Virus record (IMG/VR): IMGVR_UViG_2734482773_000004
Length of the DNA: 35,714 bases
Source: a virus
Taxonomy: Duplodnaviria; Heunggongvirae; Uroviricota; Caudoviricetes
Strand: one strand, 5' to 3'
Shown here: piece after piece, positions 476 through 34,208 of the stretch
Position numbering within the stretch: position 1 is the first letter of the stretch
Layout of the letters: each line of letters begins with the position of its first letter
Notes under the pieces: generated by a model
What the model was told of the DNA's origin: nothing
Database searches by the model: none
What the model saw: only the letters and a program-made list of their open reading frames with translations
Program-made: the position numbers and the translations under genes

Positions 476-503
476 TAAAAAATAAGCCCGTGTAAGGGAG
501 ATT
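476..503. repeat. attL: attL core, 28-bp direct repeat
   Basis: taaaaaataagcccgtgtaagggagatt is identical to 34181..34208; lies next to the integrase gene. Confidence 0.85.
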
Positions 504-582
504 TAGGGTGTCAACAGTAGGGGCTTTCAACGGTACAATGCGGGTTTGAGCGGCATAAATTACCACTGAAAGCCCTTAAACG

Positions 583-1596
583 TTACTCTACTGTGGACAC
601 TGTGTGGACACTCTCGGCCTCAGTACCACCTCTTAGCGGATTAAGAGAAATGGCGTCCTGAAGGTACTCTGGCGCAAAATGAGCGTAAACCATCGTTTGC
701 TCAATCCGCGTGTGACCTAGTATCCGTTGTAGCGTAATAATACTTCCTCCATTAATCATGAAATGAGTGGCAAAGCTGTGCCTTAGTGCATGTGTGGCTT
801 GCCCCATTGGCAAATCCGGTTTTATTGCTTTCATTGTTCGTCTGAAGCGAGGGTAATCAGCATCAGGGAATAAAAAACCTCGTTTGTTATCCGCGATCAT
901 TTTGGCAACAGCCTCTGAGATCGGGACGGTGCGTGGTTTGTTTGTTTTCGTTTTAACAAACGTGACGCGGTTATGGATGATATTTTCTGCTTTCAAACGA
1001 GCTGCTTCTCCCCAACGTGCTCCTGTACTCAGGCAAAGAATCGCAATCTTTTTATTGTCGCCGTCAAGTGCTGCAAGCAGTAAGGCAATTTCTTCCTGTG
1101 TGAGATAGCCTGTTTCTGGTTTTTCCTCCTTAAGCCTCTTTGTCCCTCTGATAGGGTGCTCACCAAAGAATAACTCCGCTTCAATCAGGGCTGTAAACAT
1201 GCCGCTAATACATGTTAAATCACGATTGATACTCGAAGGTTTAATACCCTGACTTCTTCGGGTGGCGCAGTACTGGCTGATAAGGGATTTCGTGATTTGA
1301 AATGCGCATGGGTCATTCGTTATTTTTGTGAAGATTTCAATTTTTCCAAGATTAGATTTCCCATGCTCTTCGTGTTTACCCTTTAAATCCCACCAGATCT
1401 GTGTCAGTTCCGACAGACGTCGTTTGTCTGTTGGTTTTGATAGCCATTCTTTATTGTGGTGGTTGTACAACGTGTATTTCTCGAAAGCGACAGCTTCGCT
1501 TTTCTTATCAAACTTCCTACGGATGCGTTTTCCATTACGTCCAGTAGGGCGGATGTCCACTTCATATCGACCATCATCGAGTTTTTTGATTGCCAT
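583..1596 (-). CDS. int: Tyrosine integrase, 337 aa (P2 Int-like)
   Basis: Tyrosine recombinase motifs (TGARWGE, HALRHSFATHF, LGHTRIEQTMVYAHF); adjacent to att core; same length as P2 Int. Confidence 0.93.
   Translation of the reverse strand: MAIKKLDDGRYEVDIRPTGRNGKRIRRKFDKKSEAVAFEKYTLYNHHNKEWLSKPTDKRRLSELTQIWWDLKGKHEEHGKSNLGKIEIFTKITNDPCAFQITKSLISQYCATRRSQGIKPSSINRDLTCISGMFTALIEAELFFGEHPIRGTKRLKEEKPETGYLTQEEIALLLAALDGDNKKIAILCLSTGARWGEAARLKAENIIHNRVTFVKTKTNKPRTVPISEAVAKMIADNKRGFLFPDADYPRFRRTMKAIKPDLPMGQATHALRHSFATHFMINGGSIITLQRILGHTRIEQTMVYAHFAPEYLQDAISLNPLRGGTEAESVHTVSTVE
592..612. promoter_or_regulatory. Putative Int arm-type binding sites, tandem tgtggacact x2
   Basis: Two 10-bp direct repeats with 11-bp period inside the int 3' end; similar TGTGG(A/T)C repeats at 34123..34143 in the other arm. 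Confidence 0.4.
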
Positions 1597-1711
1597 CAGA
1601 AAACCCTCCGAGTGGTGTGTTTTTTTGCGACTACTAATCGCTTTTTTCGTGGTGGCTGAAATTTAGCCACCAATAGTAGGCACTTGTAATGAATATATTC
1701 ACGATGAATTG

Positions 1712-2011
1712 TTAACCAGTCTTTTGACCGGAGTGGGGCGACGTTGTTTCGTTTTGCCCAAAGTGTGCGAGAGCGGGCGCAATTTGCCCGGACTCAGGAG
1801 CGATCTGATTGGTCATGAACCATAAAGTGTATTTGGTGAATTGTGGGGTCTGCAGGATGTTCATCATGACATCTGTTGGAGGTGTTGAACGACCACTTTC
1901 ATAGTAACTCAGCGTGCCATACGGAACCCCTGTTAAATCAGCAAGTTGTTGTCTGCTCAAATACTCTGATTTTCGCATTAAGACTATCTTCTCGCTTATC
2001 GTGTTTGACAT
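1712..2011 (-). CDS. C: Immunity repressor C, 99 aa
   Basis: HTH segment (LSRQQLADLTGVPYGTLSYYESG); position between int and cox, divergent from cox; same length as P2 C. Confidence 0.9.
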   Translation of the reverse strand: MSNTISEKIVLMRKSEYLSRQQLADLTGVPYGTLSYYESGRSTPPTDVMMNILQTPQFTKYTLWFMTNQIAPESGQIAPALAHFGQNETTSPHSGQKTG

Positions 2012-2125
2012 GGTGTTTAGATCTCAATAGTATTTAGTTTAGATGTAGATTGTTTAGTGCTTGGATGTGGGCACTAAAAGGCATTATAAGGCATTAAACG
2101 CAATTCATGAGGGCTGGAGGACGAC
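2012..2125. promoter_or_regulatory. C/cox lysis-lysogeny switch region with divergent promoters and direct-repeat operators
   Basis: Intergenic between divergent C and cox; repeated TGTTTAG(A/T) motifs at 2014, 2037 and 2051 and a ggcatta repeat at 2080..2098. Confidence 0.5.
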
Positions 2126-2401
2126 ATGAGCAAGCAAGTAACACTCATGACTGATGCGATTCCTTATCAGGAGTTCGCAAAACTAATAGGAAAATCGACA
2201 GGAGCGGTTCGTCGGATGATCGATAAAGGAAAGCTGCCTGTAATTGATATGACCGATCCACAATCAGCTTCAGGTCGTGCAGGTGAATATTGGGTATACC
2301 TTCCGGCATGGAATAACGGACTAAAACTGGCTTATGAAAGCCGCCCTAAAGAGATTCGTGACGGCTGGTTGATGTGGTTAGGTCTCGGTGAACCACGTTA
2401 A
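2126..2401 (+). CDS. cox: Cox excisionase/early regulator, 91 aa
   Basis: Position divergent from C and length equal to P2 Cox. Confidence 0.88.
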   Translation: MSKQVTLMTDAIPYQEFAKLIGKSTGAVRRMIDKGKLPVIDMTDPQSASGRAGEYWVYLPAWNNGLKLAYESRPKEIRDGWLMWLGLGEPR

Positions 2402-2582
2402 GGAGAACCGTATGAATGAGCCTCGTTGTATTGCTCAGTTACTGCGTAACGAAAGCCCCAGGGCGATTGACTTCACCATCACCCACGGTAAGGGGCGCAA
2501 GGGAATCATTATCCGTACCAAAAAACAGAGTCTGTTAAAAAAGGCTCTGACCTTTCTGAAAAGCCGGAGGGTCTGGAAATGA
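2388..2582 (+). CDS. Small early protein (P2 orf78 position); true start may be the internal ATG near 2412
   Basis: ORF in early operon between cox and B; basic small protein. Confidence 0.55.
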   Translation: MNHVKENRMNEPRCIAQLLRNESPRAIDFTITHGKGRKGIIIRTKKQSLLKKALTFLKSRRVWK

Positions 2583-3079
2583 CAGTGATGACGCTTAATC
2601 TCGTCGAAAAACAGCCAGCAGCTATGCGCCGGATAATTGGTAAGCATCTTGCCGTCCCTCGCTGGCAGGAGACATGCGATTATTATAATCAGATGATGGA
2701 ACGCGAACGGCTAACGGTTTGCTTCCATGCGCAGTTAAAACAGCGTCACGCAACGATGCGTTTTGAAGAAATGAATGATGTCGAACGTGAACGACTGGTA
2801 TGTGCAATTGATGAATTGCGTGGGGCATTCTCAAAACGCCGTCAGGTTGGCGCAAGTGAGTATGCATATATTAGTTTTTTAACAGTCAGTCAGCGTCGCA
2901 CTTTATTTATGCACGCACGACTGACAGAAAAAGAATTTAACCAGCCATACTGGCGAATTAATGAAGAATCATGTTACTGGCGTGATGCTTTATTCCGTGC
3001 ATTACGTGAATTATTCAGTCTGTTTGAGTATGCACCGACAATTCTGACGTCGGTAAAACCAGAGCAATATCTGCATTAA
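2579..3079 (+). CDS. B: Replication protein B, 166 aa
   Basis: Position after cox and length equal to P2 B; start overlaps the preceding ORF stop. Confidence 0.85.
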   Translation: MTVMTLNLVEKQPAAMRRIIGKHLAVPRWQETCDYYNQMMERERLTVCFHAQLKQRHATMRFEEMNDVERERLVCAIDELRGAFSKRRQVGASEYAYISFLTVSQRRTLFMHARLTEKEFNQPYWRINEESCYWRDALFRALRELFSLFEYAPTILTSVKPEQYLH

Positions 3080-3109
3080 GTAATTAACCAGAGTTTTTAA
3101 CGCACTTAA

Positions 3110-3367
3110 TTGTGCGGGGCTTCTTTTTGCCTGGAGAAAGTCATGCATACAGTTTCTGAAAATCAGTGCGGTAAATACGCATTACTGCTGCAACAGGCCA
3201 GAACCGAAGCACAGGCCGACGCAGCGACGCGCTTTTCTTCTCATCTTGACGCCATGATTCGCCACATCACAAAGGCGGAGTTATCCCGCGTGGAGATAGT
3301 CGAGCTGCTCAGTCAGGAGTCGGAAAAATTTCACAATATCGGATTGTCTCGCGGGGAGGTGCTTTGA
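3110..3367 (+). CDS. Small early protein (P2 orf80 position); start may be the internal ATG at 3143
   Basis: ORF in early operon, same strand and tightly packed. Confidence 0.55.
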
Positions 3368-3666
3368 TGTCCTGTTCTCATTCAGTTGTATTACTGAATA
3401 ACGCCTTAAAAATCGCCGTTATGAAAAATGGCGATTTGTCTCTTATTCAACTTTGCCTTGATAAAGAAAAACGCGACATAACTGAATCTGTTATCGCGAT
3501 TTATCAGAATGAATTAAACCTCCTGTCTGATGTGGTCAATTTACTTGTTAAACGCGCTGTATTCCACAAGCAAATTTCCTCAGTGGATGAACTGACAAAA
3601 TTAACGACAGAACTTGCCAGTTATTGCGCTGATGTATCCAGGCAACTTAACGATAAAAGGAGCTGA
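3364..3666 (+). CDS. Small early protein (P2 orf81 position), 100 aa
   Basis: ORF overlapping the upstream stop (ATGA-type coupling) in the early operon. Confidence 0.6.
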
Positions 3667-3668
3667 TA

Positions 3669-3893
3669 ATGCCGGACAACGTAGATTTTATTCAGGAACA
3701 ACAGGCTGAATTACTGGAGCGCCAGATTAACGCGGCAAGGGTAAAACATTGCGGTGCTTCTGCGCTGGTTTGCGAAGAGTGTGACGCGCCAATACCTGCT
3801 GCCCGTCGTGCGGCTTACCCGTCAGCCACGCGTTGTGTTTCCTGCCAGTCAGTCTTTGAAGCAAAAAACAAACATTACCGGAGAACGGCATGA
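3669..3893 (+). CDS. TraR/DksA-family C4 zinc-finger protein (P2 orf82 position), 74 aa
   Basis: Two CxxC pairs (CEECDAP ... CVSCQ) with the spacing typical of DksA/TraR zinc fingers. Confidence 0.7.
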   Translation: MPDNVDFIQEQQAELLERQINAARVKHCGASALVCEECDAPIPAARRAAYPSATRCVSCQSVFEAKNKHYRRTA

Positions 3894-4165
3894 GTATTCG
3901 TATTGAAATTGGCGAACGTTATGTCGTTACCAGTGACAGCTTTCAGTTTATTCTCCACGAGAAAAAGAGAGCGGAAAGCGGTAAAAACGCCGGTCAGGAA
4001 TGGTTGGCGGTGGTTGGTTATTATCCGAAATTAAGCCAGCTCGTTTCCGGCCTGATGCATCACGATATTCTGACCGGAAGCGCAAAGTCTTTTGCTGATT
4101 TAAACGCGCAGGTTGAGCAACTCAGCAGGCGTTGTTCAGAGGCTTTTGGCTCATATGGCCGTTAA
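3890..4165 (+). CDS. Small early protein (P2 orf83 position), 91 aa
   Basis: ORF in early operon immediately upstream of A. Confidence 0.6.
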   Translation: MSIRIEIGERYVVTSDSFQFILHEKKRAESGKNAGQEWLAVVGYYPKLSQLVSGLMHHDILTGSAKSFADLNAQVEQLSRRCSEAFGSYGR

Positions 4166-6419
4166 AGCCTCCGGGCGTTTTGTCCCTCCGTCAGCATTTT
4201 CCGCAGGCACCGGTAAGACGTTTGCCGGTGCTTATGCATGGAACGCGCCACGCGAGGCTGTCGGGCGCGAAAGACCCCTTACACGTGACGAGATGCGTCA
4301 GGTGCAAGGTGTTTTATCCACGATTAACCGCCTGCCTTACTTTTTGCGCTCGCTGTTTACTTCACGCTATGACTACATCCGGCGCAATAAAAGCCCGGTG
4401 CACGGGTTTTATTTCCTCACATCCACTTTTCAGCGTCGTTTATGGCCGCGCATTGAGCGTGTGAATCAGCGCCATGAAATGAACACCGAAGCGTCGATGT
4501 TGTTTCTGGCTGAGCGTGACCACTATGCGCGTCTGCCGGGGATGAATGACAAGGAGCTGAAAAAGTTTGCCGCCCGTATCTCATCGCAGCTTTTCATGAT
4601 GTATGAGGAACTCTGCGATGCCTGGGTGGATGCGCATGGCGAAAAAGAATCGCTGTTTACGGATGAGGCGCAGGCGCATCTGTATGGTCATGTTGCTGGC
4701 GCTGCACGTGCTTTCAATATTTCCCCGCTTTACTGGAAAAAATACCGTAAAGGACAGATGACCACGAGGCAGGCATATTCTGCCATTGCCCGTCTGTTTA
4801 ACGATGAGTGGTGGACTCATCAGCTTAAAGGCCAGCGCATGCGCTGGCATGAGGCGTTACTGATTGCTGTCGGGGAGGTCAATAAAGACCGTTCTCCTTA
4901 TGCCAGTAAACATGCCATTCGTGATGTGCGTGCGCGCCGCCAGGCAAATCTGGAGTTTCTTAAATCATGTGACCTTGAAAACAGGGAAACCGGCGAGCGC
5001 ATCGACCTTATCAGTAAGGTGATGGGCAGTATTTCTAATCCTGAAATTCGCCGGATGGAGCTGATGAACACCATTGCCGGTATTGAGCGTTACGCCGCCG
5101 CAGAGGGTGATGTGGGGATGTTTATCACGCTGACCGCGCCGTCAAAGTATCACCCGACACGTCAGGTCGGAAAAGGAGAAAGTAAAACCGTCCAGCTTAA
5201 TCACGGCTGGAACGATGAGGCATTTAATCCGAAGGATGCGCAGCGTTATCTCTGCCGTATCTGGAGCCTGATGCGCACGGCATTCAAGGATAATGATTTA
5301 CAGGTCTACGGTTTGCGTGTCGTCGAGCCACACCACGACGGAACGCCGCACTGGCATATGATGCTTTTTTGTAATCCACGCCAGCGTAACCAGATTATCG
5401 AAATCATGCGTCGCTATGCGCTCAAAGAGGATGGTAACGAAAGAGGAGCCGCGCGAAACCGTTTTCAGGCAAAACACCTTAACCGGGGCGGTGCTGCGGG
5501 ATATATCGCAAAATACATCTCAAAAAATATCGACGGCTATGCACTGGATGGTCAGCTCGATAACGATACCGGCAGGCCGCTGAAAGACACTGCAGCGGCT
5601 GTTACCGCATGGGCGTCAACGTGGCGTATCCCGCAATTTAAAACGGTTGGCCTGCCGACAATGGGCGCTTACCGTGAACTACGCAAATTGCCTCGCGGCG
5701 TCAGTATTGCTGATGAGTTTGACGAACGCGTCGAGGCTGCTCGCGCTGCCGCAGACAGTGGTGATTTTGCGTTGTATATCAGCGCGCAGGGTGGGGCAAA
5801 TGTCCCGCGCGATTGTCAGACTGTCAGGGTTGCCCGTAGCCCGTCGGATGACGTTAACGAGTACGAGGAAGAAGTCGAGAGAGTGGTCGGCATTTACGCG
5901 CCGCATCTCGGCGCGCGTCATATTCATATCACCAGAACGACGGACTGGCGCATTGTTCCGAAAGTTCCGGTCGTTGAGCCTTTGACTTTAAAAAGCGGCA
6001 TCGCCGCGCCTCGGAGTCCTGTCAATAACTGTGGAAAGCTCACCGGTGGTGATACTTCGTTACCGGCTCCCACACCTTCTGAGCACGCCGCAGCAGTGCT
6101 TAATCTGGTTGATGACGGTGTTATTGAATGGAATGAACCGGAGGTCGTGAGGGCGCTCAGAGGCGCATTAAAATACGACCTGAGAACGCCAAACCGTCAG
6201 CAAAGAAACGGAAGCCCGTTAAAACCGCATGAAATTGCACCATCTGCCAGACTGACCAGGTCTGAACGATTGCAAATCACCCGTATCCGCGTTGACCTTG
6301 CTCAGAACGGTATCAGGCCGCAGCGATGGGAGCTTGAGGCGCTGGCGCGTGGAGCGACCGTAAATTATGACGGGAAAAAATTCACGTATCCGGTCGCTGA
6401 TGGTTGGGGGGATTCATAG
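4155..6419 (+). CDS. A: Rolling-circle replication initiator A (HUH endonuclease), 754 aa from ATG 4155
   Basis: HUH-like motif PHWHMMLF and Tyr-containing YIAKYISK; N-terminus MAVKASGRF matches recalled P2 A; the ORF track extends to 4113 but 4155 is the likely start. Confidence 0.9.
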   Translation: MAVKASGRFVPPSAFSAGTGKTFAGAYAWNAPREAVGRERPLTRDEMRQVQGVLSTINRLPYFLRSLFTSRYDYIRRNKSPVHGFYFLTSTFQRRLWPRIERVNQRHEMNTEASMLFLAERDHYARLPGMNDKELKKFAARISSQLFMMYEELCDAWVDAHGEKESLFTDEAQAHLYGHVAGAARAFNISPLYWKKYRKGQMTTRQAYSAIARLFNDEWWTHQLKGQRMRWHEALLIAVGEVNKDRSPYASKHAIRDVRARRQANLEFLKSCDLENRETGERIDLISKVMGSISNPEIRRMELMNTIAGIERYAAAEGDVGMFITLTAPSKYHPTRQVGKGESKTVQLNHGWNDEAFNPKDAQRYLCRIWSLMRTAFKDNDLQVYGLRVVEPHHDGTPHWHMMLFCNPRQRNQIIEIMRRYALKEDGNERGAARNRFQAKHLNRGGAAGYIAKYISKNIDGYALDGQLDNDTGRPLKDTAAAVTAWASTWRIPQFKTVGLPTMGAYRELRKLPRGVSIADEFDERVEAARAAADSGDFALYISAQGGANVPRDCQTVRVARSPSDDVNEYEEEVERVVGIYAPHLGARHIHITRTTDWRIVPKVPVVEPLTLKSGIAAPRSPVNNCGKLTGGDTSLPAPTPSEHAAAVLNLVDDGVIEWNEPEVVRALRGALKYDLRTPNRQQRNGSPLKPHEIAPSARLTRSERLQITRIRVDLAQNGIRPQRWELEALARGATVNYDGKKFTYPVADGWGDS

Positions 6420-6620
6420 GGCGCTTTGATTTTTTCTGTGTTTGACATAGAATAGCCCCGTTACCGCTTGGGACATCTACTTTGCATTACTCTTGGTATT
6501 AGCTTTGTACAAAGGGTATAAAGGCTGCTATTGGCAACAATAGTGCTGGCATGGAGATTGCCTCATGTTAAAGCTAGTGAATGTACGCCAGTACAACCGC
6601 TACCGCTTTGGGCGTTGGGA

Positions 6621-6640
6621 GACGGTGCGTAAGCACCGTC
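6621..6640. terminator. Hairpin (8-bp stem, GTAA loop) between convergent A and cargo gene; possible bidirectional terminator
   Basis: gacggtgc-gtaa-gcaccgtc followed by gttctt on the + strand. Confidence 0.35.
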
Positions 6641-6668
6641 GTTCTTACCCAAAACGATAATATGCGGC

Positions 6669-8885
6669 CTAAGCGGTAACGTTCTCCTCTTCTAGTTCGT
6701 CCATCATTTTTAAATAATGCATTTCGTCACCAGTAGCTGAAAATATTGTTCTCAATTGTTTTAGGTATTTATCTGGGTCTATGTCGCCCATATCAGTAAT
6801 ATTTACCGCATCAGAGTGAGAACCTCTGTTAATGTATCTGTAGAATGCTTTGAAATCACTGTTGCTATCGTCGCGTGCCAACTTTGTTAATTCATCTTGT
6901 AGAGCATCTGTTCTATGAACAAATGCAAAATAATATTCTAGTATGTTTCTCATAATATTAGGTATTATGATTTTGTTTGCTTTGCCATCTTTTGCATCTT
7001 TTAATATTTGCCACAAAGATTGATATTCATTCTGTATGCTGTTTTTTTGTATTTCAGTAATTATACTAAAATCATTTTTCGTTACTCTACCTAGATAATA
7101 GTTTTTCTTAAATAGTTTGTCTTCTCTGCTTTTAGGAGATAGCTTAATAAGTTCATGAAAGAAATAAAGATTGTGAGTAAGGATTAATACCTTCTTTGTT
7201 AATTCATTTTTTATAATGTGGTGATGAATAATTGATGCGATGTCGTAGACATAGTTTTGCGATAGACTAGATATTGGATCGTCAATAACAATAAAAATAT
7301 CCCTGCTATCGGTATCATTTTTATCGGTTTTACCTTTACAGCACTCTAAAAAATAAAGAAACGTTATTAGTGTTTTTTCACCTTCGCTAAGAGATCTATA
7401 AACATTTTGGTTTTTTGTATGCCCTGGTCGAGATATAATGTACATATCTTTTCTTTCTGCATGTTTTTCAATACAAAAACCAGAGATCCCTAGATTTTTT
7501 AAATGGGTGTTTATTGAGTCTATCGTAGAATCAATGTTAGATATTTTATCTCGCAATGCTTTTATTGTGAGATTATTTTCTTTTCCTTGTTGCTCAATAT
7601 TATTTAATTCATCATGAACTTTCTTTTTGATATCAAAGAATTTTTCTTTGTGTTTGGATAAATTCTCTAAATCATCGCTGCAAAAAGCATGGAGAGCCCC
7701 CCAAACTTGTTTTCCGATTTTATTCTCATACTCTTTGAGTTTTTTAACCTTATCATTTATGTCTCTTATTTTTTTGTTAACAGCGTCTATGCTTTCCTGA
7801 ACATGATTTTCTAGTTCTTTATCAATTTCTAATGTAACGCATGTTGATGGATTGTTGATCTTATCAATAATGTTTATTAAATTTTTTTCTGCAATGTTTT
7901 GCAATATTTTAATATTGGAAATAATGATCTCTTTATCTTTCTCATTGATTAGTGCACATGATGATATATTGTTTTGTATTTCGTTAAAATGATATATGGT
8001 ATTTTTCTCATAAACTGACTTTATATCTGAGAGCTGTTTTACTTTCTTTGAATAACTTTCGTCAAATATTGATTTAAGGGCATTTAAAAATTCGTGACTA
8101 ATAGTTTTTTCCTGACAAAACGGACATGTAGAACCGTCTAAATAATGTTCTTTACCTTTTTTTACCCAGTCAAGATTATGAAGTTTATTAATGGTTTCTG
8201 ATAAATAGCTATTGCTTGTATCTATTATAGGGGTTGCTAATGTATTTACATCATCAATTGATGGGGTATATGGGTGTAAAGGAGTTATTAATGCGGTTTC
8301 ATTGTTTCTATTTTCTAATAGTATAGAGTATTCTTTTGCTATATCATTTAAATTAATAAAGGTGATTGGTGAGGATGATTTTATCATCTCAAAAAAAGGT
8401 CTTTTATAGCCAACTTTACCTTTCATTAAGGTTTTTAGTACAGAGTTTCTGATTGGTTCTGTTTTTTTCCAGATCGATTCGATGTATTCATTTTCTTTTT
8501 TTTCCATTTCTGCTTCTAATTTCAATAACACTCCTTTTTTTTGTCTATATTGCTCTGTAAGTTGCTGTTTAATTGCTTCTTTTTTAATTAATTGTTTTTC
8601 AATATCTGCATTTTCTTTACTTAATGTAAAAACACCTTTTTGTTCCTGTGCATTGTAGAAATTATCTTCAATAAATTTAGTGTTGTAAACAAGAGGTTTG
8701 TAATTGTCAAGAAGGGTACATTCACACTCGTTATAATCTGTGTGTGTAGAGTCGTAGAAATAATTTGAAATGGTAGATTTGCCACAACCATTTTGGCCGT
8801 ATAGTATGTTTACTCTTTTTTCAAGATTCAGTATTGTGAAGGCGTCTTTCTTATAACTGGTAACATTTTTTAATCTAAGTTCCAT
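6669..8885 (-). CDS. Cargo: Rad50/RloC-like ABC ATPase with CxxC zinc-hook-like motif and putative C-terminal nuclease domain, 738 aa
   Basis: Walker A GQNGCGKST, long coiled-coil insert with CPFC, signature LSEGEKT, Walker B IFIVIDDP, H-loop LTHN; C-terminal R-x3-E...H pattern; AT-rich; in the A-cos variable locus. Confidence 0.7.
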   Translation of the reverse strand: MELRLKNVTSYKKDAFTILNLEKRVNILYGQNGCGKSTISNYFYDSTHTDYNECECTLLDNYKPLVYNTKFIEDNFYNAQEQKGVFTLSKENADIEKQLIKKEAIKQQLTEQYRQKKGVLLKLEAEMEKKENEYIESIWKKTEPIRNSVLKTLMKGKVGYKRPFFEMIKSSSPITFINLNDIAKEYSILLENRNNETALITPLHPYTPSIDDVNTLATPIIDTSNSYLSETINKLHNLDWVKKGKEHYLDGSTCPFCQEKTISHEFLNALKSIFDESYSKKVKQLSDIKSVYEKNTIYHFNEIQNNISSCALINEKDKEIIISNIKILQNIAEKNLINIIDKINNPSTCVTLEIDKELENHVQESIDAVNKKIRDINDKVKKLKEYENKIGKQVWGALHAFCSDDLENLSKHKEKFFDIKKKVHDELNNIEQQGKENNLTIKALRDKISNIDSTIDSINTHLKNLGISGFCIEKHAERKDMYIISRPGHTKNQNVYRSLSEGEKTLITFLYFLECCKGKTDKNDTDSRDIFIVIDDPISSLSQNYVYDIASIIHHHIIKNELTKKVLILTHNLYFFHELIKLSPKSREDKLFKKNYYLGRVTKNDFSIITEIQKNSIQNEYQSLWQILKDAKDGKANKIIIPNIMRNILEYYFAFVHRTDALQDELTKLARDDSNSDFKAFYRYINRGSHSDAVNITDMGDIDPDKYLKQLRTIFSATGDEMHYLKMMDELEEENVTA

Positions 8886-9200: not shown

Positions 9201-9219
9201 GGCGAGGCGGGGAAAGCAC
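9201..9219. other. cos: cos cohesive-end sequence
   Basis: ggcgaggcggggaaagcac matches the 19-nt P2 cohesive end as I recall it; located between the cargo gene and Q as in P2. Confidence 0.7.
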
Positions 9220-24149: not shown

Positions 24150-24152
24150 TTT

Positions 24153-27385: not shown

Positions 27386-27395
27386 GTTGTTTCAT
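27386..27395. promoter_or_regulatory. Candidate late-promoter motif TGTTGTTTCA upstream of FI
   Basis: Variant of the decamer found upstream of O and V, followed by CTGACCAG similar to the V upstream CTGACAGA. Confidence 0.35.
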
Positions 27396-27477
27396 CCACT
27401 GACCAGCCAGGTCAAATAGCGTCTCATGCTCTGCACAACAGAAAATAGTTGCACCCATTAACCACGGAGTTAAACGG

Positions 27478-28668
27478 ATGAGTGACTATCATCACGGCGT
27501 GCAGGTGCTGGAGATTAACGACGGCACCCGCGTCATTTCCACCGTATCCACCGCCATTGTTGGCATGGTCTGCACGGCCAGCGATGCGGATGCGGAAATC
27601 TTCCCCCTCAATAAACCGGTGCTGATTACCAATGTGCAGAGCGCAATTGCAAAGGCCGGTAAAAAAGGCACGCTGACGGCGTCGTTGCAGGCCATCGCTG
27701 ACCAGTCAAAACCGGTCACCGTTGTTGTGCGCGTGGAAGACGGCACCGGCGACGACGAAGAAACGAAACTTGCGCAGACCGTTTCCAATATCATCGGCAC
27801 CACCGACGAAAACGGTCAGTACACCGGACTGAAAGCCCTGCTGGCGGCGGAGTCGGTAACCGGTGTTAAACCGCGTATTCTCGGCGTGCCGGGACTGGAC
27901 ACCAAAGAGGTGGCTGTTGCACTGGCATCAGTCTGTCAGAAGCTGCGCGCTTTCGGATATATCAGCGCATGGGGCTGTAAGACCATTTCCGAGGTGAAAG
28001 CCTACCGCCAGAATTTCAGCCAGCGTGAGCTGATGGTCATCTGGCCGGATTTCCTCGCATGGGATACGGTCACCAGTACCACCGCCACCGCGTATGCCAC
28101 CGCCCGTGCGCTGGGTCTGCGCGCTAAAATCGACCAGGAGCAGGGCTGGCATAAAACGCTGTCCAATGTCGGGGTGAACGGTGTTACCGGCATCAGCGCA
28201 TCCGTCTTCTGGGATTTGCAGGAGTCCGGCACCGATGCTGACCTGCTTAACGAGTCAGGCGTCACTACGCTGATTCGCCGCGACGGTTTCCGCTTCTGGG
28301 GTAACCGTACCTGCTCCGATGACCCGCTGTTCCTCTTTGAAAACTACACCCGCACCGCGCAGGTGCTGGCCGACACGATGGCTGAGGCGCACATGTGGGC
28401 GGTGGACAAGCCCATCACCGCAACGCTGATTCGCGACATCGTTGACGGCATCAATGCCAAATTTCGTGAGCTGAAAACAAACGGCTATATCGTGGATGCG
28501 ACCTGCTGGTTCAGCGAAGAATCCAACGATGCGGAAACCCTCAAGGCCGGAAAACTGTATATCGACTACGACTATACCCCGGTGCCTCCTCTCGAAAACC
28601 TGACCCTGCGCCAGCGTATTACCGATAAATACCTGGCAAATCTGGTCACTTCGGTTAACAGCAATTAA
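27478..28668 (+). CDS. FI: Tail sheath protein FI, 396 aa
   Basis: Position and length as P2 FI. Confidence 0.92.
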   Translation: MSDYHHGVQVLEINDGTRVISTVSTAIVGMVCTASDADAEIFPLNKPVLITNVQSAIAKAGKKGTLTASLQAIADQSKPVTVVVRVEDGTGDDEETKLAQTVSNIIGTTDENGQYTGLKALLAAESVTGVKPRILGVPGLDTKEVAVALASVCQKLRAFGYISAWGCKTISEVKAYRQNFSQRELMVIWPDFLAWDTVTSTTATAYATARALGLRAKIDQEQGWHKTLSNVGVNGVTGISASVFWDLQESGTDADLLNESGVTTLIRRDGFRFWGNRTCSDDPLFLFENYTRTAQVLADTMAEAHMWAVDKPITATLIRDIVDGINAKFRELKTNGYIVDATCWFSEESNDAETLKAGKLYIDYDYTPVPPLENLTLRQRITDKYLANLVTSVNSN

Positions 28669-28680
28669 GGAGCCTGACCG

Positions 28681-29199
28681 ATGGCAATGCCGCGCAAACT
28701 CAAGTTAATGAACGTCTTTCTGAACGGCTACAGCTATCAGGGCGTTGCAAAGTCCGTCACGCTGCCAAAACTGACCCGTAAGCTCGAAAACTATCGCGGT
28801 GCGGGGATGAACGGCAGCGCACCGGTAGACCTCGGCCTTGATGACGATGCGCTGTCAATGGAGTGGTCGCTCGGGGGCTTCCCGGATTCGGTTATCTGGG
28901 AGCTTTACGCCGCAACCGGTGTGGATGCCGTACCGATTCGTTTTGCAGGCTCTTACCAGCGCGACGATACCGGCGAAACGGTGGCCGTCGAGGTGGTCAT
29001 GCGTGGACGTCAGAAAGAAATCGACACCGGCGAGGGTAAACAGGGAGAAGACACCGAGTCGAAAATCTCCGTGGTCTGCACCTATTTCCGGCTGACGATG
29101 GACGGTAAGGAGCTGGTCGAAATCGACACCATCAACATGATTGAGAAGGTGAACGGCGTCGACCGGCTGGAGCAACACCGCCGCAATATCGGCCTGTGA
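28681..29199 (+). CDS. FII: Tail tube protein FII, 172 aa
   Basis: Position and length as P2 FII. Confidence 0.92.
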   Translation: MAMPRKLKLMNVFLNGYSYQGVAKSVTLPKLTRKLENYRGAGMNGSAPVDLGLDDDALSMEWSLGGFPDSVIWELYAATGVDAVPIRFAGSYQRDDTGETVAVEVVMRGRQKEIDTGEGKQGEDTESKISVVCTYFRLTMDGKELVEIDTINMIEKVNGVDRLEQHRRNIGL

Positions 29200-29255
29200 T
29201 TTTCATACGGTCAGCCAGGCTGACCGGTTAACCCTGATTCAGAAGTGAGAAAACC

Positions 29256-29531
29256 ATGAACAAAGAAAATGTCATTACCCTGGAAAATCCGGTCAAACGT
29301 GGTGAGCAGGTTATCGAACAGGTCACGCTGATGAAACCCAGTGCCGGGACGCTGCGCGGTGTCAGTCTGGCTGCGGTCGCAAACTCCGAAGTCGATGCAC
29401 TGATTAAAGTGCTGCCGCGCATGACGGCACCGATGCTGACCGAGCAGGAAGTCGCCGCGCTGGAACTGCCTGACCTTGTGGCGCTGGCCGGTAAGGTGGT
29501 CGGTTTTTTGTCGCCGAACTCGGTGCAGTAA
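29256..29531 (+). CDS. E: Tail assembly chaperone E, 91 aa
   Basis: Position upstream of the tape measure gene; length as P2 E; contains slippery heptamer near its 3' end. Confidence 0.88.
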   Translation: MNKENVITLENPVKRGEQVIEQVTLMKPSAGTLRGVSLAAVANSEVDALIKVLPRMTAPMLTEQEVAALELPDLVALAGKVVGFLSPNSVQ

Positions 29532-29683
29532 CGTTTCCGAAAAATCTCTCGGTCGATGACCTGATGGCGGATGTGGCAGTGATATTTCACTGGCCGCCAT
29601 CAGAACTGTATCCCATGAGCCTGACCGAACTCATCACATGGCGCGAAAAGGCGCTCCGGCGAAGCGGAAACACGAATGAGTAA
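29256..29683 (+). CDS. E+E': E+E' tail assembly chaperone produced by programmed -1 frameshift, about 142 aa
   Basis: Slippery site T_TTT_TTG at 29504..29510 in the E frame; the -1 frame stays open to TAA at 29681..29683, overlapping the start of T. Confidence 0.8.
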
Positions 29684-32123
29684 CAATGTAAAATTACAGG
29701 TATTGCTCAGGGCTGTTGACCAGGCATCCCGCCCGTTTAAATCCATCCGCACAGCGAGCAAATCGCTGTCGGGGGATATCCGGGAAACACAAAAATCACT
29801 GCGCGAGTTGAACGGTCAGGCATCCCGTATTGAGGGATTTCGCAAGACCAGTGCACAGCTCGCCGTGACTGGTCATGCACTTGAAAAGGCACGGCAGGAG
29901 GCCGAAGCCCTTGCCACACAGTTTAAAAACACCGAACGTCCGACACGTGCTCAGGCGAAAGTGCTGGAATCCGCGAAGCGTGCGGCGGAGGACTTACAGG
30001 CGAAATATAACCGCCTGACGGATTCCGTTAAACGCCAGCAGCGGGAACTGGCCGTTGTGGGAATTAATACCCGCAATCTTGCACATGATGAGCAGGGACT
30101 GAAAAACCGTATCAGTGAAACCACCGCACAGCTTAACCGTCAGCGTGACGCGCTGGCGCGTGTCAGTGCGCAACAGGCAAAACTTAACGCAGTAAAACAG
30201 CGTTATCAGGCAGGCAAGGAACTGGCCGGAAATATGGCCTCAGTGGGCGCTGCCGGTGTGGGGATTGCTGCTGCGGGAACGATGGCCGGAGTTAAGCTGC
30301 TGATGCCCGGTTATGAGTTTGCGCAGAAAAACTCAGAATTGCAGGCCGTGCTCGGAGTGGCAAAAGACTCCGCCGAAATGGCCGCGCTACGCAAACAGGC
30401 GCGCCAGCTCGGCGACAATACCGCCGCCTCGGCGGATGATGCGGCCGGTGCGCAGATTATCATTGCGAAAGCGGGTGGAGATGCTGCGGCTATTCAGGCG
30501 GCAACGCCGGTCACGCTGAATATGGCACTGGCGAATCAGCGGTCGATGGAAGAAAACGCGCAACTGTTGCTGGGGACTAAGGCATCCTTTCAACTGTCAA
30601 ATGATGATGTCAGCCATGTGGGCGACGTGTTGTCGGCAACGATGAATAAGTCGGCGGCTGATTTTCAGGGGCTCAGTGATGCACTGACTTACCTCGGGCC
30701 GGTTGCGAGGACGGCAGGTGTAAGTCTTGAGCAGGCAGCGGCCATGACAGGTGTGCTGCATGACAATAACATCAGGGGGTCAATGGCGGGTACGGGTGGC
30801 AGTGCCGTTGTCACCCGATTACAGGCACCGACTGGAAAAGCATGGGATGCACTCAAAGAGCTTGGCGTTAAAACCTCGGACAAAAAGGGAAATATGCGTC
30901 CGTTGTTCACCATTCTGAAAGAGATTCAGACCAGCTTTGATAAACACAAGCTGGGAACGTCTCAGAAGGGGGAATACCTTAAAACCATTTTTGGTGAGGA
31001 AGCCCTGAAATCAGCGAACGTTTTACTGGCAGCGGCAGCAAGCGGAAAACTGGATACGCTGACCGCCACGCTGAAAGCCTCGGACGGTAAAACGGAAGAG
31101 CTGGTTAAAATCATGCAGGATAACCTCGGCGGTGACTTTAAGGAGTTTCAGTCCGCTTATGAGGCGGTGGGGACTGACCTGTTTGACCAGCAGGAAGGCG
31201 CACTGCGTAAGCTCACACAGACGGCCACAAAGTATGTGTTAAAACTCGACGGCTGGATCCAGAAAAACAAATCACTGGCGTCAACCATCGGCCTCATTGT
31301 CGGTAGCGCGCTGGCGCTTACTGGCATCATCGGTGCAATTGGTCTTGTAGCCTGGCCGGTTATCACCGGCATCAATGCCATCATCGCGGTAGCAGGCGCA
31401 ATGGGGGCAATCTTCACGACGGTTGGCAGTGCTGTTATGACGGCCATCGGGGCGATTAGCTGGCCGGTTGTGGCCGTGGTGGCCGCCATTGTCGCCGGGG
31501 CGTTGCTTATCCGTAAATACTGGGAGCCTGTCAGCGCATTCTTTGGCGGTGTGGTGGAAGGGCTGAAAGCGGCATTTGCGCCGGTGGGGGAACTGTTCAC
31601 GCCACTTAAGCCGGTGTTTGACTGGCTGGGTGAAAAGTTACAGGCCGCGTGGCAGTGGTTTAAAAACCTGATTGCCCCGGTTAAAGCCACCCAGGACACC
31701 CTGAACCGTTGCCGTGACACGGGCGTCATGTTCGGGCAGGCACTGGCTGACGCGCTGATGCTGCCGCTTAATGCGTTCAACAAACTGCGCAGCGGTATTG
31801 ACTGGGTACTGGAAAAACTCGGTGTTATCAACAAAGAGTCAGACACACTTGACCAGACCGCCGCAAGGACTCATGCCGCCACGTATGGCACCGGTGGTTA
31901 TATTCCGGCGACCAGCTCTTATGCAGGCTATCAGGCTTATCAGCCGGTCACGGCACCGGCTGGTCGCTCTTATGTGGACCAGAGTAAAAACGAATATCAC
32001 ATCAACCTGACGGGCGGTACTGCGCCGGGGACACAGCTTGACCGCCAGTTACAGGATGCGCTCGAAAAATACGAGCGGGATAAACGTGCGCGCGCCCGTG
32101 CCAGCATGATGCATGACGGTTAA
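29676..32123 (+). CDS. T: Tail tape measure protein T, 815 aa
   Basis: Long Ala/Gly-rich protein with coiled-coil N-terminus and hydrophobic central segment; position and length as P2 T. Confidence 0.92.
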   Translation: MSNNVKLQVLLRAVDQASRPFKSIRTASKSLSGDIRETQKSLRELNGQASRIEGFRKTSAQLAVTGHALEKARQEAEALATQFKNTERPTRAQAKVLESAKRAAEDLQAKYNRLTDSVKRQQRELAVVGINTRNLAHDEQGLKNRISETTAQLNRQRDALARVSAQQAKLNAVKQRYQAGKELAGNMASVGAAGVGIAAAGTMAGVKLLMPGYEFAQKNSELQAVLGVAKDSAEMAALRKQARQLGDNTAASADDAAGAQIIIAKAGGDAAAIQAATPVTLNMALANQRSMEENAQLLLGTKASFQLSNDDVSHVGDVLSATMNKSAADFQGLSDALTYLGPVARTAGVSLEQAAAMTGVLHDNNIRGSMAGTGGSAVVTRLQAPTGKAWDALKELGVKTSDKKGNMRPLFTILKEIQTSFDKHKLGTSQKGEYLKTIFGEEALKSANVLLAAAASGKLDTLTATLKASDGKTEELVKIMQDNLGGDFKEFQSAYEAVGTDLFDQQEGALRKLTQTATKYVLKLDGWIQKNKSLASTIGLIVGSALALTGIIGAIGLVAWPVITGINAIIAVAGAMGAIFTTVGSAVMTAIGAISWPVVAVVAAIVAGALLIRKYWEPVSAFFGGVVEGLKAAFAPVGELFTPLKPVFDWLGEKLQAAWQWFKNLIAPVKATQDTLNRCRDTGVMFGQALADALMLPLNAFNKLRSGIDWVLEKLGVINKESDTLDQTAARTHAATYGTGGYIPATSSYAGYQAYQPVTAPAGRSYVDQSKNEYHINLTGGTAPGTQLDRQLQDALEKYERDKRARARASMMHDG

Positions 32124-32137
32124 GGAGGTGACGAAAA

Positions 32138-32617
32138 ATGATGCTCGCGTTAGGTATGTTTGTTTTTATGCGCCAGACGTTGCCACACCAGACCATGCAG
32201 CGTGAATCAGATTATCGCTGGCCGTCAAATTCCCGTATCGGTAAACGGGATGCCTTTCAGTATCTCGGTGTGGGTGAGGAAAACATTACGCTTGCCGGCG
32301 TGCTTTATCCCGAACTGACCGGCGGCAAGCTGACGATGACCACGCTCAGGCTGATGGCAGAGGAAGGCCGGGCGTGGCCGTTGCTGGATGGCACCGGCAT
32401 GATTTACGGCATGTATGTCATCAGCAGGGTGAGTGAAACAGGGAGTATTTTCTTTGCAGACGGCACACCCCGAAAAATTGATTTTACGCTGTCACTCACC
32501 CGCGTTGATGAATCACTGGCCGCGCTTTATGGCGATATCGGTAAACAGGCGGAATCGCTCATCGGTAAAGCTGGCAGTATGGCGACCAGATTCACGGGTA
32601 TGACGGGGGCGGTATAA
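32138..32617 (+). CDS. U: Tail protein U, 159 aa
   Basis: Position and length as P2 U. Confidence 0.9.
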   Translation: MMLALGMFVFMRQTLPHQTMQRESDYRWPSNSRIGKRDAFQYLGVGEENITLAGVLYPELTGGKLTMTTLRLMAEEGRAWPLLDGTGMIYGMYVISRVSETGSIFFADGTPRKIDFTLSLTRVDESLAALYGDIGKQAESLIGKAGSMATRFTGMTGAV

Positions 32618-33780
32618 TGCTGGATGCACTGACATTTGATGCAGGCAGTACGCTGACGCCGGATTACATGCTGATGCTCGACAGCAGGGATATTACCGGC
32701 AATATCAGCGACCGTCTGATGAGTATGACCCTGACGGATAGCCGGGGCTTTGAGGCTGACCAGCTTGATATTGAACTGAACGATGCCGACGGGCAGGTCG
32801 GGCTGCCGGTTCGTGGTGCTGTTCTGACGGTGTATATCGGCTGGAAAGGTTTTGCCCTGGTATGCAAAGGGAAATTTACCGTTGATGAGGTTGAACACCG
32901 GGGCGCGCCGGATGTGGTCACCATCCGCGCCCGGAGTGCAGATTTCCGCGGGACGCTCAATTCCCGCCGTGAAGGCTCCTGGCATGACACCACGCTCGGT
33001 GCGATTGTTGAGGCGATAGCCTCCCGTAACAGACTGGAAGCCAGTGTCGCTCCGTCACTGGCCGGAATTAAAATCCCGCACATCGACCAGTCGCAGGAGT
33101 CTGATGCGAAATTCCTGACCCGTCTTGCAGAACGCAACGGCGGTGAGGTCTCGGTAAAAATGGGAAAACTGTTGTTTCTCAAAGCGGGGCGGGGGGTGAC
33201 GGCCAGTGGTAAAAAAATCCCGCAGATTACCATCACCCGCAGCGACGGCGACCGTCATCATTTTGCGATTGCTGACCGTGGAGCTTACACCGGCGTAACG
33301 GCAAAGTGGTTACACACCAAAGACCCGAAGCCGCAAAAGCAGAAGGTAAAACTGAAACGCAAAAAGAAAGAGAAACACCTGCGCGCACTGGAGCACCCGA
33401 AAGCGAAACCAGTCACGCAGAAGAAAGCTCCTAAAGTACCGGAAGCGCGCGAAGGTGAATACATGGCCGGTGAGGCTGATAACGTTTTTGCCCTGACCAC
33501 GGTATATGCCACGAAAGCGCAGGCCATGCGCGCCGCTCAGGCGAAGTGGGATAAACTGCAACGGGGCGTTGCGGAGTTCTCCATCAGCCTGGCTACCGGT
33601 CGGGCAGATATTTACACGGAAACACCGGTTAAAGTGTCAGGCTTTAAGCGCGTCATAGACGAGCAGGACTGGACAATCACTAAGGTGACACATTTTCTGA
33701 ATAATAGCGGCTTCACGACGTCCCTGGAGCTTGAGGTCAGGCTTTCTGATGTGGAGTACGAAACAGAAGATAATGAGTGA
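32617..33780 (+). CDS. D: Tail protein D (late control region), 387 aa
   Basis: Position and length as P2 D; start overlaps U stop. Confidence 0.9.
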   Translation: MLDALTFDAGSTLTPDYMLMLDSRDITGNISDRLMSMTLTDSRGFEADQLDIELNDADGQVGLPVRGAVLTVYIGWKGFALVCKGKFTVDEVEHRGAPDVVTIRARSADFRGTLNSRREGSWHDTTLGAIVEAIASRNRLEASVAPSLAGIKIPHIDQSQESDAKFLTRLAERNGGEVSVKMGKLLFLKAGRGVTASGKKIPQITITRSDGDRHHFAIADRGAYTGVTAKWLHTKDPKPQKQKVKLKRKKKEKHLRALEHPKAKPVTQKKAPKVPEAREGEYMAGEADNVFALTTVYATKAQAMRAAQAKWDKLQRGVAEFSISLATGRADIYTETPVKVSGFKRVIDEQDWTITKVTHFLNNSGFTTSLELEVRLSDVEYETEDNE

Positions 33781-33861
33781 TGTTTTTATTTTATCTGTTT
33801 GTTTTATAAGGATAAATTAACTAAAATGGCACCATCAACAAAACCGGAAGAGGTGCTCGCG

Positions 33862-34080
33862 ATGTTTCATTGTCCTTTATGCCAGCATGCCGCACATGCG
33901 CGTACAAGCCGCTATATCACTGACACGACAAAAGAGCGTTATCATCAGTGCCAGAACGTGAATTGCAGTGCCACGTTCATCACTTATGAGTCGGTACAGC
34001 GATACATCGTGAAGCCGGGAGAAGTCCATGCCGTAAGGCCGCACCCGTTGCCGTCAGGGCAGCAAATTATGTGGATGTAA
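33862..34080 (+). CDS. ogr: Ogr late-gene transcription activator (zinc finger), 72 aa from ATG 33862
   Basis: CPLC...CQNVNC zinc-binding motif; internal start MFHCPLCQ gives the 72-aa P2 Ogr length; last phage gene before attR. Confidence 0.92.
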   Translation: MFHCPLCQHAAHARTSRYITDTTKERYHQCQNVNCSATFITYESVQRYIVKPGEVHAVRPHPLPSGQQIMWM

Positions 34081-34093
34081 TTACAAACAGGAA

Positions 34094-34117
34094 GCCCCTC
34101 AGTCGAGGGGCTTTTTT
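34094..34117 (+). terminator. Rho-independent terminator after ogr
   Basis: gcccctc-agtc-gaggggc hairpin followed by tttttt. Confidence 0.8.
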
Positions 34118-34122
34118 GTCGA

Positions 34123-34143
34123 TGTGGTCAATGTGTGGACGTG
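34123..34143. promoter_or_regulatory. Putative Int arm-type sites in the ogr-side arm (tgtggtcaat / tgtggacgtg)
   Basis: Two TGTGG(A/T)C repeats with 11-bp period, same family as 592..612. Confidence 0.4.
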
Positions 34144-34180
34144 ACCAGAAATAAATCCTTTTATTTCAATTTGTTGTACG

Positions 34181-34208
34181 TAAAAAATAAGCCCGTGTAA
34201 GGGAGATT
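34181..34208. repeat. attR: attR core, 28-bp direct repeat
   Basis: Identical to 476..503; overlaps the 3' terminator of the CyaR sRNA. Confidence 0.85.

Follow-up and report, generated by a model that had tools for sequence, protein, structure and literature searches.

The window analysed here is a stretch of 35,714 nucleotides (nt) of viral DNA (Caudoviricetes; IMG/VR record IMGVR_UViG_2734482773_000004). Between positions 476 and 34208 it holds what is very probably an intact P2-type temperate myovirus (genus Peduovirus), integrated at locI, with alternative cargo at known hotspots and a receptor module in the tail-fibre genes H and G that differs from that of P2. A preliminary description of the same DNA had taken it for an intact P2-like prophage in which three independently swapped cargo loci sit on a fixed chassis, and had considered it likely inducible. 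For the comparisons below, NC_001895 / AF063097 served as the P2 reference, with blastn for nucleotide blocks and tblastn with every P2 protein; counts of genomes refer to 5426 complete E. coli genomes.

The element is delimited by two identical 28-mers in direct orientation (TAAAAAATAAGCCCGTGTAAGGGAGATT), each consisting of the 27-bp core of the P2 attachment site attP and one flanking T:

476-503, no strand: attL core, with the bacterial side on the left and the P2 P' arm side on the right; equal to attR and to the P2 attP core.
34181-34208, no strand: attR core, with the P2 P arm side on the left and the bacterial side on the right; equal to attL.

An identical 28-mer would be expected by chance within 35.7 kb at a rate of about 1e-8. 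When the left flank, one core and the right flank are joined in silico, the resulting 604 nt match many E. coli genomes contiguously and at 100%, and this empty site is covered to at least 80% at one place in 4563 of the complete genomes. Since the joined sequence occurs uninterrupted elsewhere, the boundaries of the element are exact. The insertion is 33,705 bp long and the P2 genome 33,574 bp, so that the excised size agrees within 0.4%. That the 28-bp repeats, the integrase and cos together define a complete element, as first described, is borne out by the identity of the repeats, an Int protein 100% identical to that of P2, a cos sequence matching at 19 of 19 positions and the restored empty site. 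Two independent complete genomes, NZ_CP070152 and NZ_OW967003, also contain this prophage, so that an assembly artefact is excluded.

The bacterial genes on either side identify the insertion site:

1-318, plus strand: yegR (105 amino acids, aa), bacterial flank outside the element; an open reading frame that carries this name in the RefSeq annotation of the matching genome and of empty sites.
34185-34270, minus strand: cyaR, a bacterial small RNA gene (Rfam RF00112, full length, 100.7 bits against a gathering score of 47, E=3.4e-19).
34353-35714, minus strand: trhP/yegQ, bacterial flank, cut by the window end (NCBIfam PRK15452 TrhP, E=7.6e-264; yegQ in RefSeq).

This is the classical P2 site locI, between yegR and yegQ/trhP and overlapping the 3' end of cyaR, a gene already on record as an insertion site of P2-type prophages in E. 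coli W, K-12 (as an ogr-D' remnant) and B (PMC3032704). As the attachment core holds the 3' end of cyaR, the gene is left intact by integration; its final 24 nt, terminator hairpin included, lie inside the core, and the same piece is duplicated at attL. Integration into a tRNA gene can be excluded, as a tRNA scan of the window found no such gene, and an Rfam scan of the window at gathering threshold returned nothing besides CyaR. On the bacterial side of attL, a stretch of 49 nt (416-464; TCGATGTGGTCAATG...GTGACCAG) is 71% identical to the Int P-arm region of the phage at 34105-34153. Because this stretch belongs to the common E. coli empty site, it appears to be an old relic of a previous P2-type right end. 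In NZ_CP070152 (strain FDAARGOS_1285) yegR is marked as frameshifted; it is intact in the window.

At the nucleotide level the backbone aligns with P2 in four collinear blocks of 94.2-97.8% identity:

476-6415: backbone block, P2 24355-30295, 97.8% identity.
9201-18274: backbone block, P2 1-9072, 97.2% identity.
19405-22556: backbone block, P2 10308-13459, 97.0% identity.
27266-34208: backbone block, P2 17436-24382, 94.2% identity.

All 39 of the 39 P2 backbone proteins are found at full length, ungapped and in the P2 gene order (tblastn), and no frameshift, truncation or insertion sequence interrupts any of the 39 genes. Int, C, Cox, P, Y, K, FII, Ogr and orf82 are 100% identical to their P2 counterparts at the protein level, and for the terminase the figures are 98.8% for M and 100% for P. 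The gene A protein is 98% identical over 751 of 761 matched residues and ends 7 aa early; T, at 91%, is the most diverged ordinary gene. The genes fall into the modules of the P2 map:

583-2401, both strands: lysogeny and switch module, with int at 583-1596 (minus), the C repressor gene at 1712-2011 (minus), the promoters Pc and Pe with operators O1 and O2, and cox at 2126-2401 (plus).
2412-6419, plus strand: early and replication operon of orf78, B, orf80, orf81, orf82, orf83 and A, with 88-100% aa identity to P2, full length.
9201-9219, no strand: cos, 19 nt (GGCGAGGCGGGGAAAGCAC), identical to cosL/cosR of P2.
9389-18575, both strands: Q and P (minus), then O, N, M, L, X, Y, K, lysA, lysB, lysC, R and S (plus), for packaging, head, lysis and tail completion; 94-100% aa identity to P2 except for S.
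19405-24680, plus strand: baseplate and tail-fibre operon of V, W, J, I, H and G, with V, W, J and I 98-99% identical to P2.
27478-34080, plus strand: tail operon of FI, FII, E, E+E', T, U, D and ogr, with 91-100% aa identity to P2, full length.

The regulatory and recombination sites are preserved to the same degree. Next to attL, the Cox sites match P2 at 74 of 74 positions and the Int P' arm at 27 of 27; next to attR, the Int P arm matches at 28 of 28 and the integration host factor (IHF) site at 33 of 34. The Pe-O1-O2 region (40/40), Pc (25/26), the activator site of pO/pP (31/31) and the context of the ori nick inside gene A (4155-6419; 26/26) are likewise kept, as are the flanks of cos, by about 30 nt on the left and about 60 nt on the right. 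The slippery site and the product of the -1 frameshift that gives E+E' (29256-29683) are intact, and the gene of the late activator Ogr (33862-34080) is followed by a terminator that matches that of P2 at 23 of 24 positions. The promoter region of V is non-homologous to that of P2; an Ogr-type half-site at 19337-19360 (ATGTTGTGTCACAGCTGACA; TGTTGTGTCA...) resembles the pO site, and this Ogr-type site lies 68 nt upstream of the V start codon, against 69 nt in P2. Read from the sequence, then, every P2 cis-element and essential gene is present in P2 order. The whole-element alignment that had been proposed as a check supports the description of the backbone as P2-like in order and length, both in its collinear blocks and in its full-length proteins, and revealed no backbone frameshift or truncation.

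Outside this backbone, neither blastn nor tblastn finds a match in the window for the P2 genes orf91, tin, old, orf30 or fun(Z), and non-P2 DNA occupies 6416-9171 (the old/tin position between A and Q), 18275-19404 (the orf30 position between S and V, together with the 3' part of S) and 24769-27265 (the Z/fun position between G and FI). The GC content of these three blocks is 32-38%, compared with 50% for the whole element. Genome-wide nucleotide similarity to P2, calculated from the blastn blocks, is about 74% (about 24.9 kb of identical bases in 33.7 kb). In the practice of the International Committee on Taxonomy of Viruses (ICTV), a genus corresponds to at least 70% and a species to at least 95% genome-wide nucleotide similarity. 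By this measure the element shares its genus with P2 and belongs to a different species.

The sequence shows that Int recombined the attP core with the E. coli locI attB, which overlaps the terminator end of cyaR. If the functions known from P2 apply, the rest of the life cycle can be sketched as follows. Following P2 biology, lysogeny would be held by the C repressor at Pe, and release would require Cox together with Int and IHF. DNA replication would start from a nick made by the A protein at ori, the four late operons would be switched on by Ogr, and the M/P terminase would cut at cos, with the excised genome of 33,705 bp being packaged. This viability is deduced from intact frames and sites, and it counts against an intact phage that the missense changes in T and the chimeric S and H/G might impair assembly. 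A prophage that looks complete, releases no infectious particles and is kept by the host for its cargo would show the same 91% identity of T to P2 and the same chimeric genes, and activity cannot be shown in silico; the gene between S and V is, moreover, frameshifted in one of the two genome copies, and the K-12 lineage retains a P2 remnant (ogr-D') at the same site (PMC3032704). Still, we regard such a cryptic, domesticated state as improbable, given 39 backbone genes free of frameshifts, truncations and insertion sequences, the conservation of all cis-sites and a packageable genome size. A deposited phage record, R18C, has the same chimeric S and HNH arrangement, and pseudogenes are reported to be rare in P2-like elements (PMC13586616). 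We therefore continue to read the element as an intact phage.

Whether this phage can be induced is a separate matter. Phage P2 is classically not SOS-inducible, and the immunity module of the element is P2's own. A LexA box (CTGT-N8-ACAG) occurs nowhere in the window, and a tblastn search with Tum of phage 186 gave as its best result an alignment with E 0.023 over 25 aa inside gene T, which is not meaningful. A regulatory module of the 186 type was rejected, as there is no CI, Apl or Tum match by tblastn and the repressor is P2 C, not 186 CI. In the SOS-inducible P2-like prophage of E. coli HS, induction needs tum and cleavable LexA (PMC11195241). The suggestion that the element is likely inducible does not hold up against these results; we predict from the sequence that release is rare and spontaneous, with no response to mitomycin C. 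The tempting plan of mitomycin C induction is corrected accordingly: no induction of the prophage is expected from it.

The first cargo block, between A and Q, contains a single gene:

6669-8885, minus strand: gene of a 738-aa RloC-like ABC ATPase, the sole gene of the non-P2 block 6416-9171 (32% GC).

It is read leftwards, in the same orientation as old and tin in P2. The Pfam family AAA_13 matches the protein end to end (E=2.8e-111) and the SMC_N profile covers residues 2-576; in PADLOC the protein belongs to the candidate family PDC-S06 (E=1.6e-254), and the PrrC profile aligns to residues 490-730. RloC proteins have been defined by ABC motifs, a CxxC zinc hook and the pattern Arg-X3-Glu-X36-52-His, often with Ser before His (Davidov and Kaufmann, 2008; PMC2610378). 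The 738-aa protein has a Walker A motif at 30-37, LSEGE at 499-503, Walker B at 531-536 and the His switch THN at 570-572, with CPFC at 254-257 near the middle of an insert of about 430 aa between Walker A and LSEGE, a candidate counterpart of the coiled coil with central zinc hook that splits the ATPase head of RloC. Its C-terminal part contains R646-x3-E650-x39-S689-H690. A search of PDB sequences with the protein gave no match. As these motifs fit the RloC-defining pattern, the protein is most likely a candidate RloC-like tRNase for abortive infection that would be expressed from the prophage. The resemblance to RloC and PrrC extends to the ABC motifs, the long insert with its central CxxC, the C-terminal Arg-x3-Glu-x39-(Ser)His and the match of PrrC to the C-terminal third; in contrast to those systems, the gene is phage-borne and has no link to a restriction-modification locus. 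The NCBI label of the protein is just "AAA family ATPase", and PADLOC files it under PDC-S06 and not under PrrC. The allele occurs in 44 E. coli genomes, and an RloC-type tRNase candidate on a phage is a lead worth following.

In several of these genomes (NZ_OW967003, NZ_AP029046, NZ_CM129038, NZ_CP058618, NZ_CP076527 and others) the A-Q cargo lies at record positions 2515-4731 or 2516-4732, which means that the chromosome record begins exactly at the start of prophage gene A. Apparently, gpA was taken for a replication gene of the chromosome in the start-fixing step of assembly pipelines.

The second cargo gene lies between S and V:

18572-19327, plus strand: gene of a 251-aa HNH-motif protein (CxxC...EH...N...CxxCN), within the non-P2 block 18275-19404.

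Its ATG overlaps the stop codon of S (ATGA), and a terminator scan found no terminator-like site in the interval between S and this gene, which places it in the late O operon; across all three cargo regions, scans for promoters and terminators gave counts near the shuffled expectation. P2 orf30, at the corresponding position, is on the opposite strand and behind a terminator. Most P2-like phages leave the gap between S and V empty, W-phi, fiAA91-ss and others among them, with about 630 nt for the whole of R-S-V. The 251-aa protein matches phrog_10503 (E=3e-180). Nearly all of the 44 clusters in its family come from genomes of Enterobacterales or from unnamed assemblies; the gene is always between S and V, and it is found at the same position and on the same strand in Enterobacter P2-like prophages. 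Among the E. coli genomes, 77 carry the allele.

Across the family alignment C37, C40, E49, H50, N70, C84, C87 and N88 are invariant. The predicted model is a single compact domain with a strand at 46-50 ending at H50, strands up to 84 and a helix at 85-105 (predicted template modelling score, pTM, 0.84). The Pfam HNH_5 match, at 16.2 bits (E=0.01), is under the cut-off of 27.5, and whole-model fold searches, which returned no nuclease match, were uninformative. In NZ_CP070152 the gene is split by a frameshift into two hypothetical proteins (18193-18513 and 17771-18151 of locus L002), either through real decay or through a sequencing error; it is intact in the window. A search of PDB sequences with the HNH-family profile gave no match, and no family of PADLOC-DB v2 (0 families) matched the protein. 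Membership of the HNH family is thus a candidate assignment, unproven and resting on the motif and the sub-threshold Pfam match.

The neighbouring gene S is itself composite. It is 54% identical to P2 S overall, with 77% over residues 1-53 and 40% from residue 54 to the end; the latter part is 55% identical to S of an Enterobacter phage that carries the HNH gene, whereas the flanking R and V are 98% P2-like. A nuclease gene next to a diverged piece of its neighbour is what would remain after homing with co-conversion, and for this reason the reading that we rank first, if tentatively, is a free-standing homing-type nuclease that would be made late in lytic growth and move together with its own S 3' half. 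A phage-beneficial late function, such as assisting the terminase as its HNH partner or attacking the DNA of the host or of competitors as a nuclease, or else a protein that is no nuclease, is an alternative to which we also give a tentative, sizeable share of belief. It would suit a gene that is co-transcribed with head, lysis and tail genes, that retains 62-74% identity among P2-like prophages from several genera of enterobacteria and whose compact model has no recognisable nuclease fold match. However, P2 and most of its relatives are viable with an empty S-V interval or an unrelated gene there, so that the protein is not needed for packaging, the pattern of four Cys, E-H and N is invariant, and its link with an S 3' half of foreign origin is in keeping with co-conversion. 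On the homing interpretation, the S-V locus, which has been little studied, would offer a testable case of homing in a classical phage, with a late HNH-motif gene that is linked to foreign DNA in the 3' half of S.

The third cargo block, at the Z/fun hotspot between G and FI, is a cassette of two genes:

24926-25630, minus strand: gene of a 234-aa multi-pass membrane protein, with hydrophobic segments and, at its C-terminus, a conserved soluble domain of about 65 aa.
26158-27123, minus strand: gene of a 321-aa protein with two N-terminal transmembrane helices, a disordered acidic linker and a C-terminal PD-(D/E)xK-like domain.

The block (24769-27265) has a GC content of 38%, and both genes run against the late operons, as does fun(Z) in P2. 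The C-terminal domain of the 321-aa protein gave a confident AlphaFold2 (AF2) model with a restriction-endonuclease-like alpha/beta fold. A profile search placed 2851 representative proteins in its family at E<=1e-3, mostly of the same architecture, with the motif FD(G/A)...E-x-K, in which D216 is kept in 173, E236 in 159 and K238 in 135 of 175 members. What weighs against a nuclease in the window is that this copy retains D216 and E236 and has Asp at position 238, so that the D...(D/E)-x-K signature is incomplete. The codons for E236-I237-D238 are at 26410-26418. As the closest relatives vary between D, N, K and R at position 238, the sequences suggest that catalysis is relaxed or altered in the enterobacterial clade of the family, and nuclease activity of the copy in the window is doubtful.

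Neither protein is matched by a model of PADLOC-DB v2, Pfam or NCBIfam; their relatives are found in accessory slots of prophages and beside genes of the defence type. Relatives of the 321-aa protein occupy prophage slots, among them the cIII-N interval of a lambdoid phage, the position after a methylase in another, the position before the HNH-terminase genes in Achromobacter and the end of a Hymenobacter prophage. For the 234-aa protein there are eleven homologue clusters, with relatives in the A-Q hotspot of a Serratia P2-like element beside a SIR2-STAND gene and, in Aeromonas, beside an ATPase gene of the OLD/Septu type (AAA_15/21). By position and association, the pair is most likely a prophage-expressed, membrane-associated function in exclusion or abortive infection. 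It tells against one system that each gene is found elsewhere without the other. Between the two genes lies a non-coding spacer of 527 nt (25631-26157), whose length is 524-528 nt in all three contexts in which the cassette occurs; it is 73-93% identical per 100-nt bin across them, no better than the coding parts, and gives no evidence either way for a non-coding RNA.

A role other than defence has, in our judgement, a little under an even chance: the cassette could serve another lysogenic conversion, of the envelope or under stress, or hold two unrelated passengers of a mobile unit bounded by hairpins. That neither protein is matched by a defence model, that the Lys of the motif is replaced in the window copy, that each gene stands alone elsewhere and that the cassette is also found in plain chromosomal contexts would all be accommodated by such a role. 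It is harder to reconcile with a hotspot that houses fun(Z) and three validated systems (PMC9519451), with an orientation like that of fun(Z), against the late operons, and with relatives in the lambdoid cIII-N slot, in an A-Q hotspot by SIR2-STAND and beside an ATPase of the OLD/Septu type. We accordingly keep the exclusion or abortive-infection function as the preferred reading of the pair. The cassette was found in 2 of the 5426 E. coli genomes.

The borders of this cassette coincide with two hairpins that resemble repetitive extragenic palindromic (REP) elements:

24742-24765, plus strand: left border hairpin ("L-type", REP-like), GTCAGCT-CTGTGCCAAA-AGCAGAC; homology of the cassette starts at 24742 and P2 homology ends at 24768.
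27262-27285, plus strand: right border hairpin ("R-type", REP-like), GCCTGCA-TCTCGCTCAA-AGCAGAC; P2 homology begins again at 27266, and that of the cassette runs to 27285.

Each hairpin is 24 nt long, both are on the same strand, and the family has the stem GTCCGCT/AGCGGAC and loops of 10 nt. The homology of the cassette and that of the backbone overlap by 27 nt on the left (24742-24768) and by 20 nt on the right (27266-27285). Counterparts of the 2.54-kb cassette (24742-27285) are found in an Enterobacter chromosome (L003, 5805-8350; 92.8% identity) and in another enterobacterial chromosome (L012/L013, 3345-5889; 90.5% identity); both segments lie outside prophages and have the same end points as the cassette in the window. 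P2 has degenerate copies of the hairpins around fun(Z), and for most of the 25 P2-like phages listed homology stops at 24753-24765, inside the left hairpin. In the second chromosomal context (L012/L013) the hairpins have the perfect stem GTCCGCT/AGCGGAC and form doublets in at least five intergenic regions; further hairpin positions there are 604-665, 2335-2397, 3300-3361, 5863-5930 and 6990-7006.

The exact left-type hairpin was found in at least 120 reference-genome stretches, mostly of the Xanthobacteraceae type and as doublets; among the matches listed, a few are from Enterobacterales (Pantoea, Phytobacter, Mixta and Pseudescherichia). The form GTCCGCT-NN-GTGCCAA-N-AGCGGAC is repeated in many alphaproteobacteria (Pseudolabrys, Xanthobacteraceae), usually with a second hairpin of the same stem about 20 nt upstream, and stem and loop are conserved across bacterial classes. 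In E. coli chromosomes the full doublet is rare (15 of 5426 genomes), and the family has no match in Rfam, also at E<=1 on the hairpin-rich L012. Like REP elements and bacterial interspersed mosaic elements (BIMEs), the hairpins are present in many copies, as doublets between genes, in many alphaproteobacterial genomes and in some enterobacterial ones, where the doublets flank ordinary genes; in contrast to REP elements and BIMEs, the hairpins have no Rfam match and are rare in E. coli chromosomes.

Since the cassette stops at the same points and with the same hairpins in the phage and at two unrelated non-phage chromosomal sites, exchange at REP-like repeats is suggested. Short-repeat recombination or a REP-specific single-strand transposase could then load chromosomal genes into the phage. 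The paper on the P2 hotspots leaves the exchange mechanism open and speculates on cos ends for A-Q (PMC9122126). The combined proposition, that the Z/fun hotspot exchanges its cargo as hairpin-cargo-hairpin units and that the cassette is a new membrane-anchored exclusion or abortive system, is one that we hold to be rather unlikely as a whole. If true, it would supply a concrete mechanism for hotspot turnover, and the cassette would be a new membrane-anchored exclusion or abortive system from a family of about 2,850 representative proteins without a Pfam model. A rare Z/fun cassette of a large unannotated family, with hairpin borders that hint at how the hotspot is reloaded, is a lead in itself.

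Exchange is not confined to the three cargo loci. Gene H (21831-24149) encodes 772 aa, 103 more than the 669 of P2; its residues 1-251 are 96% identical to P2, the C-terminal two thirds are replaced, and the product of the following gene G (24153-24680) is 74% identical to P2 G. At 22361-22832 H contains a tandem repeat of a 132-nt (44-aa) unit in 3.6 copies, to which most of the 103-aa length difference is due; P2 has one full unit (13252-13461), which matches each copy of the window by blastn. The closest relatives of the H/G module are found in P2-like phages plated on Yersinia, and a receptor specificity different from that of P2, set by the H C-terminus and G, is the best explanation. With the host-range module formed by the H C-terminus and G and the 3' two thirds of S mosaic too, the backbone is not the fixed chassis of the preliminary description; because H/G and the 3' part of S have been swapped, the chassis is not entirely fixed.

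The claim that the three classical variable loci all hold non-P2 content stands, as the A-Q, S-V and Z/fun blocks are unmatched in P2, and so does the claim of independent swapping: the alleles occur in 44, 77 and 2 genomes, respectively, and all three are found in one prophage in only 2. Overlap was judged from all 44 A-Q carriers and 60 of the 77 S-V carriers, 17 S-V records being outside the list. Among these listed sets the only other overlap is strain PE144, in which the A-Q and S-V alleles are 1.3 Mb apart and in different prophages.

P2-like prophages are present in roughly a third of E. coli genomes, and A-Q and Z/fun are established reservoirs of anti-phage genes. The hotspots for anti-phage cargo in P2-like phages have been documented in detail (Rousset et al., 2022, PMC9122126; Vassallo et al., 2022, PMC9519451; iLund4u, 10.1101/2024.10.15.618418; PMC13586616), so that there is little new in the phenomenon itself: the element is an ordinary example of it, with one more combination of alleles. 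What interest remains attaches to the uncharacterised cargo genes and to the cassette between its hairpins. None of these four sources (PMC9122126, PMC9519451, 10.1101/2024.10.15.618418, PMC13586616), in which the term "orf30" does not occur, regards the S-V (orf30) locus as a hotspot for defence.

No phage record covers 80% or more of the first 25 kb. The best overall matches to the backbone are phage 10W and Peduovirus P24C9, which align at 96.5% identity over about 76% of those 25 kb, and the segment R-S-HNH-V is 97.1% identical in R18C (NC_049461); unlike the element described here, none of the three carries its A-Q or Z/fun cargo. P2 differs in old, tin, orf91, orf30 and fun(Z), which are absent from the window and replaced, and in its H, G and S. 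Otherwise the two have much in common: gene order, the 39 backbone genes, cos, ori, the attP core and arms, the C/Cox switch, the Ogr and late promoter sites and locI are shared, and with C and the operators identical the immunity is the same. In relation to the P2 hotspots as described, the Z/fun cassette stands apart, with no PADLOC, Pfam or NCBIfam model and an occurrence in 2 of 5426 genomes. The A-Q and Z/fun cargo nonetheless follows the known pattern closely: it sits at the exact positions of the two hotspots, is low in GC, varies between near-identical phages and is not pseudogenised.

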